This document shows positions 10,990 to 61,757 of a stretch of DNA of 64,000 bases, in pieces. The DNA is from Candidatus Bathyarchaeia archaeon (GTDB taxonomy: Archaea > Thermoproteota > Bathyarchaeia > Bathyarchaeales > Bathycorpusculaceae), in contig JBEKGO010000001.1 of assembly GCA_050012755.1 (NCBI GenBank), forward strand, positions 63,545 through 127,544, read 5' to 3'. The position numbers were made by a program, and so were the translations under genes. Positions within the stretch are counted from its first letter, which is position 1. Each line of letters begins with the position of its first letter. Under the pieces are notes generated by a model. The model had not been told where the DNA came from. It did not search any database and was given only the letters and a program-made list of their open reading frames with translations.

Positions 10990-11184
10990 GTTTTGAGCCC
11001 CGATAAACTAAGTATTGTCACTGCTCTAACTTAATAAACCGTTATGTTGCCCTAAATCGAAAGAACCGTATTTTTCATAGCTATTGAGAATTCTCGCTTT
11101 GTTTATTTGACAAACATATTGTTTTGAAGATTCGCAGGATGAAAGTCTAAACATCCAAAAAAGTAGGTTTAATCTTATTGGCGC

Positions 11185-11300
11185 GGATTTTTGTGCGTTT
11201 TTGTTCTTTGTGTTTTGGTTTGCTTTTTTGATTTGGGGCTTAAATTGTTTGCAGGTTGAGTCAAGAAAAGTCAAAATTCGTCAAAATAAGTCAAAGATAG
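11185..11300 (+). repeat. Dispersed leader + 10-bp phased GTCAA array, copy 1
   Basis: Leader core TCTTTGTGTTTTGGTTTGCTTTTTTGATTTGGGGCTTAAA (11205-11244); GTCAA at 11260, 11270, 11280, 11290. Confidence 0.85.
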
Positions 11301-11379
11301 TGATGAATTGCATAAAAAAGTATTTGATGCCCCGTAAACAGAAGTTGAAAGGTTTTTATTACGTTAGTGCAATGTAGAG

Positions 11380-53958: not shown

Positions 53959-54011
53959 CATCATATTCTTCAAAAGGTTTAGTTGGCTGTAATTCTGAAC
54001 TTTTTCTTCCT

Positions 54012-54135
54012 GCGATTTTTTGGGATGTTTCTAGATGTTTTGGGATGTTTTAAGATTATAGTTGCAATAGTTTTGAGCCCCAAATTAAAAAAGCAACTCA
54101 AAACACAAAGAAAAAACTGCACAAAATCCGTCAAT
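54012..54135 (-). repeat. Dispersed leader + 10-bp phased (A/C)ATC array, minus-strand copy
   Basis: Minus-strand core TCTTTGTGTTTTGAGTTGCTTTTTTAATTTGGGGCTCAAA (54111-54072); plus-strand GAT at 54014, 54024, 54034, 54044, 54054. Confidence 0.85.
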
Positions 54136-54280: not shown

Positions 54281-55912
54281 ATGTTAAACGCCCAAGTCAA
54301 ACGATTCATTTTGCCCTTTTCCTCGCAGAAAAGCAATGAGCCATTCGTCTCAGAAGTTGAAGCAGCAACTGTTTATGCGCTTGCAGAGTTTGAAAGAATG
54401 AAAGGCGGTGGATTAATTTTAAAACATCCAGAAGAAAAACTCCATTTTATTGCGGAGATAGGTTATCCACTTTGGCTTTTTCCAAACAGCTTAACTGCCT
54501 ACATTTTTGACGGCTTAAACAATTTCATCTATTCTGTTCCTTACTTTGAATTGCCTCATGCCAAAAGTTTCATGGATAACCTTGAGGCAAAATCGAAGAC
54601 GCGAGAAGATTACATGATTTTTCTCTCATATAATAGCCGTTATTTTAAGCAGCCCACTAAAGAGAAAGAGTTCCCTCTGAGAAGTTTAATTGTTGCTTTA
54701 GATTTTAAGAAAGAGTTCGATGTTTACCGTAAAGAGGCCACAGAAGTGATGGGTCAATTCACGAAGATAGCACCGCTAACTCCAACTCTGCAAGAGACAT
54801 CAATTTCTTCAATGATAGCTGAAATGAACATGCTGCAATCATCACTAAAAGAAAATGCTGATGGACTTCCAGAATGCCTCAGACGCGTAAACAAGACAAC
54901 CAGCCAATACATAACAGAGCTCGATTATGCAGCAGAAGCAGCAAAAGACGAAGCTGACGCTAAAATCAAAGCTCAAGAGGAAATTATTAATCCGCAAATC
55001 ACCAAGCTGAACAGTGAATGCAAACGTCAAATAGCAAATGTAACGGTCGGCTTTGATGATGAAATAGACAAACTCAAAAAACTCAAAGCAAGGACCTCAA
55101 AACTCATAGACTCTGAAGAAAAAAAGCTTAAACAGTACGAGCAAGCAGCAAGAAAACAAGCCCAGCAGAACCATTTGATCTATGAAAAAAGATGGAAATC
55201 AAAAAGTAAGGAAACCAAAAAAGAGATTGGCGGACTCAGGAAAGAGCTAAAACGAATAGAAAACAACATTAAACATTTGAACAAACAGAAAGACGAGAAA
55301 ATCTCCGCACTGCGGTTTGAACTTGAAACTGAAGTAAAGTTGGCTCGCCAGCCCTTGCTTGACCTCGAGGTTGCACGCGACGCCAAAATGTTGATTTTTA
55401 AGCGAGAGACTGAAAAGTTGGTTAATCAGGAAAAATCCTTAGTTGAAGGATTGAATGGTGCTATTGAATTGGCTGAGAAAGTTAACGGTGGGTTCCAAAT
55501 GTTAGGTATTAGAAACCTACAACTGAGGGACCCAGCCCTATTTTATGTTCCATTCTACGTGGCCTGTTATCAAGTTGGATTAGCAAAACGGTATATTTTC
55601 ATTGCTCCATCGAAGACAACCTCTGCTGGTTTTGCTGCCAAATTCAAAGGCGTAATGGGCGTTTCAAAGATTAAAGAAATGTTTACTCCATGGTTCAAGA
55701 CTATAACAGTTCTAATTGAAAAAGTTCAGGTTCTGGTTAAGCGGGACAGTTTGTTGGACCAGCAAATCACTGACTGGGGTGAAAGAAACAACCTTTTGAA
55801 AAATGAGTTGGCTCGGGTTAATGTGGCCAAGGGATTAGTTTACTTAAAGGATGCCGGCTGGCTTTCGCAACGAGAATATCAAACGTTAACTGACAGCTTA
55901 GCTCAATATTAG
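54281..55912 (+). CDS. Hypothetical protein with long central coiled coil
   Basis: 543-aa ORF; K/E-rich heptads flanked by globular segments with YPLWL and YVPFYV motifs. Confidence 0.75.
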   Translation: MLNAQVKRFILPFSSQKSNEPFVSEVEAATVYALAEFERMKGGGLILKHPEEKLHFIAEIGYPLWLFPNSLTAYIFDGLNNFIYSVPYFELPHAKSFMDNLEAKSKTREDYMIFLSYNSRYFKQPTKEKEFPLRSLIVALDFKKEFDVYRKEATEVMGQFTKIAPLTPTLQETSISSMIAEMNMLQSSLKENADGLPECLRRVNKTTSQYITELDYAAEAAKDEADAKIKAQEEIINPQITKLNSECKRQIANVTVGFDDEIDKLKKLKARTSKLIDSEEKKLKQYEQAARKQAQQNHLIYEKRWKSKSKETKKEIGGLRKELKRIENNIKHLNKQKDEKISALRFELETEVKLARQPLLDLEVARDAKMLIFKRETEKLVNQEKSLVEGLNGAIELAEKVNGGFQMLGIRNLQLRDPALFYVPFYVACYQVGLAKRYIFIAPSKTTSAGFAAKFKGVMGVSKIKEMFTPWFKTITVLIEKVQVLVKRDSLLDQQITDWGERNNLLKNELARVNVAKGLVYLKDAGWLSQREYQTLTDSLAQY

Positions 55913-57085: not shown

Positions 57086-57886
57086 TTACGGCTTATGGGC
57101 TTCCACTTCTATGCGCATCATTCCAACGTGAATAACGCCTGCAGAGTCCGCTGGGTGCTGTTCAATGTAGTGGTTAACGATTAATTCAACAAATTTTGGT
57201 CTAAGCTCAACTGGAATCCGGTCTGTGAAAGGAAGCCATGTGGTCCTTACCCACCCAGTCAAGCCTTCTACATCGTTAAACTTCATGTCTTTAGGAAACA
57301 GCTCAATACGTTCAGCCAGCAAACCCGCCTCACGCATGAACACAGTGTATTCTTCTGGGTCATAGAAGCCATAGGGAAAAGTCATATTATCGAAAAAGCC
57401 CATCCAAGGCTCCACAACCATTAATTCGTTTATGAGGCTAAGTATGTCTTTGGCATTGCCTTTTCCGGCCATCTGAAACAGCAGCCTGCCGCCTGGCTTT
57501 AAGCTTCTCTGGACACCTGCAAGCACTGCTTTTTGGTCAACAATCCAATGTAATGCAGCATTAGAAAAAACGACATCAAATTCCGATTTAAAAGTTAATT
57601 TTCGAGCATCGATAATTTGGAAACAAAGGTTTGGATAATCTTTTTGTGGGAACGCCTTTTTTGCCAAATCTATCATTTTCTCTGAGCTGTCAACGCCGAT
57701 TATCTTGCCATTGGATAGGCACCGTGCGAGTTCTGCTGTGATTTTGCCGTCACCGCAGCCAACATCGAGCAAAGCTTCGTTTCCTTGAAGTTTTAGTTTT
57801 GGAATTAGCTCTTGCGCCCATTGGAACTGGTTTTGGCTGTTTTTCGAGTAGTCTTGAGCGTTCCAATTATAACCGATGTGTGCCAT
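57086..57886 (-). CDS. SAM-dependent methyltransferase (Tam-like)
   Basis: WNAQDY, LDVGCGDG, VFSNAALHW, LKPGG. Confidence 0.87.
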   Translation of the reverse strand: MAHIGYNWNAQDYSKNSQNQFQWAQELIPKLKLQGNEALLDVGCGDGKITAELARCLSNGKIIGVDSSEKMIDLAKKAFPQKDYPNLCFQIIDARKLTFKSEFDVVFSNAALHWIVDQKAVLAGVQRSLKPGGRLLFQMAGKGNAKDILSLINELMVVEPWMGFFDNMTFPYGFYDPEEYTVFMREAGLLAERIELFPKDMKFNDVEGLTGWVRTTWLPFTDRIPVELRPKFVELIVNHYIEQHPADSAGVIHVGMMRIEVEAHKP

Positions 57887-57896
57887 TTTTCCATCT

Positions 57897-58448
57897 CTAT
57901 TTGAATGTTAATTGGGAGATTGAATAGTAGACGATTTCGCCTCGGCGGTTCATGACAGCTAAGGTTAGCTCTTTCTTTTGGCTTTGACATTGCTGCAGTG
58001 CGTTTGCTAACTCATCTATGCCGAGAGGTTTGCCCTCTTGCATGCTTAAAACCAAGTAAGGTGCGGTATCTTTGCCGTATGCGCCTCGTTCGTACATGCG
58101 AAAATCTATTCCGGCGCCGAAACCATCCCTTGCAACATAGCCTCGGCTTCTCAGATCTCGGTAAACCATGTAGCTAACCCATGCATTGTCATTTTGTGCT
58201 TCGTAGCAATGTAGGAGGCTTTGGAAATCCGCTACTTTGCCATTTTCATCTTTGACTTCTAGCATTCCCTTATCCATAAGGTACAATGCTTCAAAGAAGG
58301 TAAGTGTGAAAACTTTATCATCTAATGTGCCGTATCCCCGAGAGGTAAGCGCGTCAATGCTGCTTTGGTCTGCGACAACAACGCCTTTTTCTGCTAAGGT
58401 GCCGTTGGTTCTGAATTCTGGGGGCTGTGTTTTTTTGATTTCGGTCAT
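57897..58448 (-). CDS. endA: tRNA-intron endonuclease subunit (probably structural/non-catalytic)
   Basis: LTFFEALYL, YMVYRDLRSRGY, DFRMYERG; catalytic Tyr and His positions appear substituted. Confidence 0.85.
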   Translation of the reverse strand: MTEIKKTQPPEFRTNGTLAEKGVVVADQSSIDALTSRGYGTLDDKVFTLTFFEALYLMDKGMLEVKDENGKVADFQSLLHCYEAQNDNAWVSYMVYRDLRSRGYVARDGFGAGIDFRMYERGAYGKDTAPYLVLSMQEGKPLGIDELANALQQCQSQKKELTLAVMNRRGEIVYYSISQLTFK

Positions 58449-59476
58449 TTTGCTCTTTTTCCTTCATTTTTGAACTTGCTAAAATCTTTGCTGTAATACA
58501 CTTTGTTCTCACAGATTATGGCGGACACATATTTAAGTGGCGTAATGTCAAAAGCAGGGTTCATAACATTGACCCCATCTGGAGCAATTTGCACCGAGCC
58601 GATGTGTGTGACTTCTTCAGGTTTGCGCTCCTCAATAATAACGTCCGATGCCTTGTGCTGCAGATCGAAGGTGGATTTTGGTGCTGCAACATAGAAAGGT
58701 ATGCCATGTTCATGTGCCAGCACTGCCACAGAGTATGTGCCAATTTTGTTAACCACTCCATCTTGGACGATGCGGTCAGAGCCCACAATAACCTTGTCCA
58801 CAAGCCGTTTGCTCATGACGTAGCCGGCCATGTTATCTGTTATTAAGGTAACAGGGATGCCGTCGCGTTTTAGCTCGTATACTGTGAGTCGAGCTCCTTG
58901 CAAAAGCGGGCGGGTTTCGTCGGCAATTACTTTGATTTTTTTGCCCTGTTTCCAAGCCGCACGGACCACGCCCAAAGCTGTTCCATACTCCACAGTTGCA
59001 AGTTCGCCTGCGTTGCAATGGGTCAAAATAGTGTCGCCATCATCAATGAGTACTGAGCCGTTTTTGCCGATTGCATGGTTCTGCGCTGCGTCTTCATCCG
59101 CAATTTTCTGAGCTTCCTCGATGACGACTGCTTTAAGCCCTTCAATGGCTCCTGTGTATGATCGGGCTTTGTTTAATACTCTGTCTACTCCCCAAAACAG
59201 GTTCACGGCTGTGGGTCTTTGCCGTTTGATAATTGAGCCTGCATCTTCCAGCTCTGATAATAGTTTTTCTTTTGTTTTTGCTCTTGAATGGTAAGCGGCT
59301 AATGCAACGCCAAAGCCAGCGGCTGCACCTAGTAATGGAGCACCTCTAACGCGGAGGGTTTTTATGGCTTCAGCCATCTGCTCAACCGTTTTAATTTCCA
59401 AAGTTACTTCTTGCAGAGGAAGTTTGGTTTGGTCAGGTGTAATGACGGCTCCGTTTTGCCACTTTATCATCCGCAT
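58445..59476 (-). CDS. mtnA: S-methyl-5-thioribose-1-phosphate isomerase / aIF-2B family
   Basis: DQTKLP, VRGAP, RPTAVNL, THCNAG, DETRPLLQGARLT, NKIGT, NPAFDITP. Confidence 0.9.
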   Translation of the reverse strand: MRMIKWQNGAVITPDQTKLPLQEVTLEIKTVEQMAEAIKTLRVRGAPLLGAAAGFGVALAAYHSRAKTKEKLLSELEDAGSIIKRQRPTAVNLFWGVDRVLNKARSYTGAIEGLKAVVIEEAQKIADEDAAQNHAIGKNGSVLIDDGDTILTHCNAGELATVEYGTALGVVRAAWKQGKKIKVIADETRPLLQGARLTVYELKRDGIPVTLITDNMAGYVMSKRLVDKVIVGSDRIVQDGVVNKIGTYSVAVLAHEHGIPFYVAAPKSTFDLQHKASDVIIEERKPEEVTHIGSVQIAPDGVNVMNPAFDITPLKYVSAIICENKVYYSKDFSKFKNEGKRAK

Positions 59477-59580
59477 TTTGCATTTTCCCCAAACGTCTTG
59501 TTATTATGCCTAGTTTGTGTTGGTTCTGTTTAATATTTCGGCAATTTTATGAAAACTTCATGTTCGGAATATTCATTCAT

Positions 59581-59740
59581 GTTTTTCTGCGATTTTTTGT
59601 TCTTTGTGTTTTGGGTTGCTTTTTTGGTTTAAAGCTCAAATCTTTTGCACGTTGCGTCTTTATTCGTCACTACGCGTCACTATACGTCACTAACCGTCAT
59701 CAGACGTCATAAATCGTCACAGAACGTCACTGTTCGTCAA
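59581..59740 (+). repeat. Dispersed leader + nine-unit 10-bp phased CGTC(A) array
   Basis: Leader core 59601-59640; CGTC at 59655, 59665, 59675, 59685, 59695, 59705, 59715, 59725, 59735. Confidence 0.92.
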
Positions 59741-59748
59741 GGGTGCAA

Positions 59749-59810
59749 CTTTTTTTGTGTTCTAGTTAGCTCTTTTGTTTTGGGCTTAAAATGCTGTAGG
59801 CTACGTATGC
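59749..59810 (+). repeat. Degenerate tandem copy of the leader
   Basis: TTTGTGTTCTAGTTAGCTCTTTTGTTTTGGGCTTAAAATGCTGTAGG aligns with the leader consensus. Confidence 0.55.
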
Positions 59811-59956
59811 AGAAGTAACCAAAGTTCCAGCATGTACAACTGCGGAAACCTACGATACAAAAGGTTCTCGACACCTTAAACAAATTACGGTGCTTTCCAA
59901 TCTGCCAAAGCTAAAGCCTATATAACTTAATTAGATAAAATGAGAAGGGAAGCGAT

Positions 59957-60226
59957 ATGGAGATTTTACTTGACGAAATGTACGCTGGCCTAAAAGAATA
60001 TCTTGAAACCTTAGGCTACAATGTGCTGACAGCTCAGGAAGCAAGTTTGAAAAGCGCCAAAGACCGAGACATAGTCGAACACGCTGGCAAACACAATTTG
60101 ATTCTTGTTACTCAAGACCAAAAGCCCGCCGAACTTGCTGAACTTTTGGGCGTTAGGTGCGTCTTTATTACTAATTTGATGATTGCCAAATTGGTAGACG
60201 AAAAAATTAAACAGCTCTTTAAATGA
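59957..60226 (+). CDS. DUF5615/Mut7-C-like small PIN-domain protein
   Basis: ILLDEM..L..YL..LGY, DRDIV, ILVTQD. Confidence 0.8.
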   Translation: MEILLDEMYAGLKEYLETLGYNVLTAQEASLKSAKDRDIVEHAGKHNLILVTQDQKPAELAELLGVRCVFITNLMIAKLVDEKIKQLFK

Positions 60227-61696: not shown

Positions 61697-61757
61697 GATT
61701 GAGCCTAAGCAAACATTTTTCTTTCAATTTCCAATTCAATTAATTGAAGGTAAAGAG

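Follow-up and report, generated by a model that had tools for sequence, protein, structure and literature searches.

What element sets a short motif at every tenth base pair behind a T-rich leader in an intergenic spacer of a Bathyarchaeia genome, and what reads it? The element lies at positions 59583-59870 of the window, that is, the whole 64,000-nt stretch of DNA that was analysed. A sequence-only reading had described it as one of three dispersed copies; it had missed the copy number, the decayed unit at 59745-59870 and the protein gene family that owns the module.

The reported unit and its repeat family

The units of the window are listed below; copies without a gene are called orphans.

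59583..59654, + strand: leader of the reported unit, ~72 nt (leader profile, E 5e-12)
59655..59744, + strand: array of nine 10-bp units, CGTCA(C/T) class (sequence reading, TRF and pattern count)
59745..59870, + strand: second, decayed unit, head to tail with the reported one (weak leader match and reading)
11187..11308, + strand: AGTCA-class orphan unit, with its leader at 11187-11258 and five array units starting at 11259
54008..54129, - strand: CATCC-class orphan unit, with its leader at 54129-54058 and an array descending from 54057

The reported leader comprises, in order, a T-rich conserved part, a BRE/TATA-like stretch and TTGCACGTTG, which abuts the array; it carries CTCAAAT where gene-linked copies have CTTAAAT. 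In the array, CGTC starts at 59655, 59665 and so on to 59735, with CGTCT in the first unit and CGTCA in the other eight, so that a box of positions 1-5 or 1-6 is followed by a spacer of 4-5 nt. The claim that CGTC recurs nine times at exactly 10 bp holds on direct reading, in Tandem Repeats Finder (TRF), which gives period 10, and in a pattern count, in which four CGTC at 10-bp spacing match the window six times in overlapping positions, all within 59655-59738, and never in 100 dinucleotide-preserving shuffles. We read 59655..59744 as an operator-like binding array. Ten further units of the CGTCA(C/T) class, eight in this genome (G000) and two in other genomes, have an identical 3' unit order.

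The decayed unit consists of a shortened leader remnant (59745-59803), with a leader match at C1:123294-123337, equivalent to window 59750-59793 (E 0.035), and of a degenerate GTACA/GCAAAC-type array from 59804. The next gene after the reported copy is a DUF5615/PIN-like ORF ~210 nt away, beyond the decayed unit; in this copy the array does not stand between the predicted promoter and the regulator's own gene, as it does in complete modules.

The leader is indeed shared with the copies at 11.2 kb and 54.1 kb, although its ungapped identity to the former amounts to 53 rather than the claimed 55 of 65 positions; to the latter it is 46 of 65. In all three copies 6 nt separate TTGCA from the first RTC, as the fixed register described earlier demands. 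The copies are also intergenic and non-coding, as had been stated: the ORFs that overlap the units are spurious and built of the repeats themselves, and AGTCA-class arrays contain stops in all three frames. A coding origin, as a hydrophobic leader peptide with a low-complexity tail, was rejected on stops in all frames of many arrays, unconserved frames and spurious overlapping ORFs on both strands.

When the leader profile was iterated on the whole genome (2.41 Mb in 65 contigs) at E <= 0.01, it found 128 units on 34 contigs, 125 of them with E < 1e-4; the three dispersed copies are all real, yet three is an undercount. Such a genome-wide scan, which the sequence-only reading had proposed, shows that 121 of 127 units have a fixed-register periodic tail with a best lag of 10 or 20. 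Specifically, the lag-10 self-identity of the 70 nt after the leader averages 0.61, against 0.26 (sd 0.07) in 2000 random genome windows. Column conservation of the leader spans -72 to -1 relative to the array, and the arrays comprise 2-13 units. The 106 arrays with at least four units fall by ungapped identity into 16 box classes, the largest of which in this genome are:

AGTCA, 26 arrays
GCAAAC/GTACA, 15 arrays
GGTC/GGTT, 11 arrays
CGTCAC, 10 arrays (the reported class)
CGTCTC, 9 arrays

Over 746 units, G occupies position 2 of the box in 93% and T position 3 in 70%, and position 1 is almost never G. Conservation within arrays is 0.97/0.89/0.92 at positions 2-4 and falls to 0.62-0.69 at positions 7-9; that positions 2-4 are kept while 7-9 drift argues for selection on a short phased box and not for mere duplication history. 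The repeat unit is a short box plus a spacer in strict phase. Within classes, arrays are conserved as well as or better than leaders: in the six CATCC copies the arrays are 100% identical over 40 nt and the leaders 82%, and TGTGT-class arrays are 96% identical. The units form 75 clusters of 1-5, and strands are never mixed in the 34 multi-unit clusters, all of which run head to tail.

Several further features of the family were observed. A 20-nt super-period of alternating unit types, for example at window 54014-54056, is as strong as the 10-nt period in many arrays, and the best lag is 20 in 39/127 units of this genome and 37/103 units of other genomes. The motif T(A/G)TTGA(C/T)(G/A) occurs at about -82, just outside the conserved leader, in 35/127 units. 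In units of the TGTAAG class (e.g. C40:13787, C34:26211 and C1:31107 of this genome), the next leader is preceded by a 3' tail that is specific to the class and contains a short hairpin, GGACA...TGTCC.

Beyond this genome, 16 of 24 other genomes of the genus contain the leader, and of 16 genomes that represent other genera of the order two gave a weak match. An exact-pattern search in which each GTDB species was represented by one genome gave 88 stretches; nearly all of the 80 that were listed come from Bathyarchaeota/Bathyarchaeia MAGs of peat, bog and soil projects. Among the 80 listed loci, 77 hold 106 units, with a best lag of 10 or 20 in 81/103. Two leader-profile matches (L089, L099) lie on MAG contigs labelled Limnocylindrales and Euryarchaeota, possibly mis-binned Bathyarchaeia contigs. 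At L206 (G015:C3:40600-41200), a near-perfect run of at least ten AGGACAAGGA units looks like a recent slippage expansion, unlike the diverged spacers of most arrays.

Coupling of the module to a family of ~92-aa proteins

An ORF family of ~92 aa starts 3-30 nt after the last box in all six assessable places of this genome. As a safeguard against circularity, family genes were also selected by protein alone, by searching 40 genomes of the genus with the protein profile, which gave 30 loci and 27 genes with an N-terminus. In 23 of these 27 genes a same-strand leader-profile match ends 45-111 nt before the start codon, and the remaining four have a degenerate leader with three to four GTC boxes. 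At least three phased boxes can be read upstream of all 27; lag-10 identity reaches 0.5 or more at 15 of them and is low in some loci because short arrays score low. Distant homologues in other genera and families of the class are preceded by an RRGCTTAAAT-like motif and 10-bp arrays, ten AGATnnnAAA units in the case of L176, and the T-rich leader is not conserved there. The family protein is rare in the class, occurring in 13/201 genomes and 9/87 genera. Over the 24 same-genus genomes, leader and protein match counts are correlated (Spearman 0.79, with six genomes having neither), the kin not being independent. This coupling of array and gene across loci identifies leader plus array as the native 5' region of the gene family.

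In this genome, 10 of the 128 units are followed by a family start (M/L-P-L-T/N/S), against 9 of 5000 control windows; they comprise six genes and four decayed remnants. About 120 copies, the reported one among them, are gene-less, and four orphans retain decayed first codons of a family gene. The arrays of the eight family matches, of which four are complete and four cut by contig ends, cover 4 of the 16 classes, and the most abundant orphan classes, AGTCA (26 units), CGTCAC (10) and CATCC (6), lack a gene-linked array in this genome. For CGTCAC only decayed gene remnants occur here, and an intact gene stands behind such an array in another species (L150). Likewise, in G015 (10 contigs; 50 units read in 31 stretches) AGTCA (10 orphans) and AATCG (6 orphans) have no gene-linked array. 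A rule of one box class for one paralogue per genome was rejected, since it fails for AGTCA, CGTCAC and CATCC in this genome and for AGTCA and AATCG in G015; with such classes lacking a cognate gene, a binding model requires that the proteins recognise no more than a 3-nt core, GTC for example. A tree of 35 proteins agrees partially with box class, one tight clade differing in its boxes (CGTT, CGAC, CGCC), and any such agreement is uninformative, co-inheritance being expected of a gene and an array that are physically linked.

No conserved same-strand ORF follows the family gene in the 27 loci. A type II toxin-antitoxin operator was rejected, as the AbrB-type order of antitoxin then toxin is absent in the same 27 loci. 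Two of the family genes of this genome lie at C53:6751-7026 and C2:15857-16126. Three tandem copies of the family gene occur at ~1539-nt spacing at G012:C1:7626-10973.

The gene-linked leaders have a purine-rich stretch and CTTAAAT upstream of the array. The core TTAAAT is fixed at 19 nt before the array in 19/19 occurrences, and it is present in 16/35 gene-linked leaders versus 16/120 orphans of this genome (Fisher p 1e-4). Family genes have GGAG-type ribosome-binding sites downstream of the last box and ahead of the start codon, which suggests that gene-linked arrays are probably transcribed as 5' UTR; the usual archaeal promoter-to-start spacing, counted from CTTAAAT, would place the start of transcription near the first or second box. 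By these motifs, the leader looks like an archaeal promoter region of BRE/TATA type with a T-rich upstream part, and not like the nucleation site proposed for it earlier. The companion proposal, an array on one helix face for a DNA-binding protein, fares better, as the array is tied to a gene of the PhS018/AbrB superfamily, and binding would be its likely function.

The family protein is a single chain with two R-x-x-(I/V)-P motifs. Pfam gave no match to it even at E 10, MraZ included. An AlphaFold2 model built from a 14-row alignment has a pLDDT of 90, and its best match in the PDB is PhS018 of Pyrococcus horikoshii (2GLW), with a Foldseek E of 1.5e-5 and a TM of 0.74, and with a Z of 12.1 and an rmsd of 2.1 over 84 residues in VIA-align. 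In line with this structural match, a profile match to PhS018 covers both motifs (E 0.014), and TIGR01439 (AbrB) matches 9 of 14 members at a level short of its cut-off (best E 2.5e-5). MraZ chains, on the other hand, match weakly in Foldseek (prob 0.87-0.94, TM ~0.45) and are absent among the best 50 VIA matches. The only ESM Atlas match is the family's own unnamed Bathyarchaeota cluster (score 0.77). On its predicted structure, the family protein is a PhS018-type single-chain barrel of the AbrB superfamily and not a MraZ. PhS018 is placed in the AbrB/MazE/MraZ superfamily, is predicted to recognise DNA and is called uncharacterised (PMC4333400).

Bacterial MraZ offers a precedent. It binds four GTG(G/T) boxes with 6-nt spacers before its own gene, and in Mycoplasma genitalium one subunit places its two-lobed motif in the major groove at each box, transcription starts inside the first box and the outcome is repression (PMC12957436). 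Boxes before the regulator's own gene are the ground on which we read the leader as promoter and the array as operator. We therefore propose, with moderate confidence, that the reported element is an orphan copy of the 5' regulatory module, promoter plus operator array, of PhS018-type genes. In a complete module, the leader would carry a BRE/TATA-type promoter ~19 nt before the array, and an operator of 4-13 boxes (N-G-T-N-N plus A/T-rich spacer, in an exact 10-bp period) would lie between promoter and start codon. The protein would bind one subunit per box on one helix face, as MraZ does on GTG(G/T), and would control transcription from a start site at the array or just within it, so that the gene may be autoregulated. 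Leader and array would then have multiplied in this genome to ~128 copies in 16 classes, mostly gene-less, and the orphans may act as extra binding sites, whether operators, roadblocks or sinks, for family proteins. If this reading holds, the uncharacterised archaeal PhS018-type family gains a DNA target and a role. The MraZ mode, with one barrel for each box and one box for each helical turn, would then not be confined to a single bacterial promoter but would also operate in an archaeal system of many specificities with up to 13 boxes.

A further-reaching version is tentative, and we hold it possible at best. PhS018-type paralogues may each read their own 3-5-bp box in 10-bp register and polymerise over 40-130 bp, an 'addressed coating' by which more than 100 cassettes would serve as switchable roadblocks, insulators or promoter silencers. 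If true, it would give a first function to the structural-genomics orphan PhS018 and would represent a natural form of modular, phase-dependent DNA recognition that diversifies by change of box.

Lability of the orphan copies and competing explanations

Orphan sites vary between relatives. The 11.2-kb unit lies 72 nt before an RsmB/F-type methyltransferase gene at a synteny break (window 11086-11343): the flanking Nop5 and RsmB/F-type genes are non-adjacent in every relative examined, at a distance of ~46 kb in G003 and ~74 kb in G015. The 54.1-kb unit stands in the spacer that separates Nre from an unannotated 543-aa gene and is aimed at the Nre 3' end; the orthologous spacers of G015, G004 and G018 lack it. 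The neighbouring 543-aa ORF (window 54281-55909) has no Pfam match. The reported element is situated at the left breakpoint of an inversion of at least ~1.8 kb (the query ended at 61700). Compared with G003, G018, G046 and G015, segment 59903-61687 is inverted and 57086-59544 keeps its orientation; the inverted segment holds the DUF5615/PIN-like ORF, an unannotated ORF and an HTH+phosphoribosyltransferase gene. Four further orphan loci were compared, two of them with empty sites in one to three relatives and all of them variable. Altogether, orphans are absent in at least one of five relatives at three of seven compared loci, and two others coincide with a synteny break or an inversion breakpoint. 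The orphans are young or labile.

Such lability, together with 128 copies in 2.4 Mb, raises the possibility of a selfish or neutral dispersed repeat, a non-autonomous mobile element or one spread by recombination, whose periodic tail would be inherited from the regulatory region of the gene and whose orphans would be decaying relics without host function. We judge this explanation unlikely, and it survives better than the other two set out below. In its favour, units are over-represented on short accessory contigs and near the ends of contigs, most orphans have degenerate TATA-like motifs, and four units carry decayed gene starts. Orientation relative to neighbouring genes shows no bias either, the downstream gene lying on the same strand in 36 cases and on the opposite strand in 32, with 15 clusters between convergent genes, in a neighbour set of ORFs of at least 90 aa that misses short genes. 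The lack of orientation bias in orphans, the absence of TTAAAT from most of them and their labile sites count against the module reading proposed above and would also fit selfish or decaying DNA.

The hallmarks of transposition, however, are lacking. Terminal inverted repeats are absent, as had been claimed, with no inverted pairs in 59500-59960; no target-site duplication was found at the three filled/empty comparisons, where the insertions bring 50-100 nt of unshared flank that blurs the boundaries; and the 69 crude ORFs of the seven contigs densest in elements include no transposase, integrase, Cas, partition or initiator gene. A MITE or other non-autonomous transposon was rejected on the first two of these counts. 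Moreover, the strictly head-to-tail order of all 34 multi-unit clusters, the greater conservation of boxes than of spacers and the retention of arrays at or above the level of their leaders count against this explanation. The selfish reading is partly compatible with the promoter-plus-operator module, because it concerns how the copies spread and not what reads them.

The unit-densest contigs (C33, C54, C60, C61, C53, C55 and C59; L025-L032) carry up to ~1 unit per kb, and their genes include PIN, MazF, ParE and AbiE modules, PadR/TrmB/HTH_45 (wHTH) regulators, glycosyltransferases and sugar/surface genes. Since the ends of many contigs fall within a unit, assembly probably breaks at the repeat. 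As an abundant repeat family of a widespread uncultivated soil and peat lineage that marks sites of rearrangement, it is useful for genome assembly and comparison.

A small non-coding RNA gene in each unit is less probable still. Here the leader would be the promoter of an unstructured A-rich transcript that presents a motif every 10 nt and serves as sponge or guide for an RNA-binding protein; the transcript would be terminated at the next T-rich stretch. T-rich stretches terminate archaeal transcription, and the leader of the next unit would do so; the BRE/TATA-like motif stands at a fixed distance from the array, whole arrays including spacers are near-identical between copies in some classes, and the probable 5' UTR transcription of gene-linked arrays would also agree with an RNA. 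The TATA-like motif, however, is missing from most orphans, and an exact 10-nt period suits, in our judgement, the DNA helix better than any known mode of RNA binding. The structured ncRNA named earlier as a candidate finds no backing: Rfam gave no matches at gathering score over the window and, over 59450-59960, only a chance-level match to sR41 (E 0.47) outside the element, and on neither strand does the array fold more stably than shuffles (z +0.8 and +1.1). The leader folds slightly better than shuffles on its + strand (z -1.9).

A chromosome-organisation site made of 10-bp phased A-tracts and boxes, among the earlier suggestions as a centromere-like, origin-like or histone- or nucleoid-positioning site, would explain the exact 10-bp phasing and the A/T-rich spacers, which in many classes would give intrinsically curved DNA, but is highly improbable, given that 128 copies are too many for centromeres or origins, that 16 classes with conserved boxes are needless for a structural signal, that A-tracts are absent from the CGTCAC, CGTCTC and GCAAAC classes, that partition and initiator genes are absent beside clusters, with ParA, SegAB and Orc1 missing among the 69 scanned proteins, and that the module is tied to one small transcription-factor-like gene.

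Comparison with known systems

A literature search, with supplementary files outside its scope, found no description of such an element. Several known systems share parts of its architecture. In iteron-type centromeres and operators, such as ParR-parC of R1 and pSK41 or the omega heptads, direct repeats of 7-20 bp are bound cooperatively by a protein that forms a continuous coat or superhelix. ParR and omega are ribbon-helix-helix proteins on plasmids, with one or two arrays per replicon, whereas the arrays described here make up a dispersed family. BOX, REP/BIME and Correia elements occur in tens to hundreds of intergenic copies, are modular and non-coding with variable inner units, and rely on inverted repeats or hairpins. 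The present element is likewise a modular, intergenic and non-coding repeat, but it has no inverted repeats, its inner units are 10 bp long in helical phase, and it is tied to a specific protein gene.

A conserved AT-rich leader followed by a directional array also recalls CRISPR. As the sequence-only reading had rightly stated, it is not one: 10-bp units with a 5-nt box stand here in place of repeats of ~25-40 bp with unique spacers, there are no phage-derived spacers and no cas genes among the 69 scanned proteins, and whole arrays are conserved between copies.

With respect to the protein, PhS018 (2GLW) is a 92-aa single-chain barrel between the swapped-hairpin and double-psi folds and has the same length as the family protein. 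It is the best structural match, at 23-26% identity, and both R-x-x-I-P motifs align. The difference is that PhS018, called uncharacterised in PMC4333400, is not known to have a DNA site or a function.

The closest parallel to the system as a whole is the MraZ box array, which had been overlooked when the element was said to resemble nothing named. Both consist of short direct box repeats, GTG(G/T) there and N-G-T-N-N here, with a 10-bp period; both arrays lie between a promoter, a predicted one in the present case, and the regulator's own gene, here in complete modules; and both regulators are single chains with two AbrB-like halves. Additionally, the G-T at box positions 2-3 recalls GTG. Unlike MraZ/UPF0040, which has ~150 aa and forms rings, the protein here has 92 aa and lacks a MraZ Pfam match and oligomerisation helices. 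The system is monocistronic and has no dcw context, its arrays reach 13 boxes instead of 3-4, and it comprises 16 classes and ~120 gene-less copies in this genome. Compared with MraZ-like box arrays, what is new here is an archaeal system tied to PhS018-type genes, whose boxes fall into many classes and whose copies make up an abundant repeat family.
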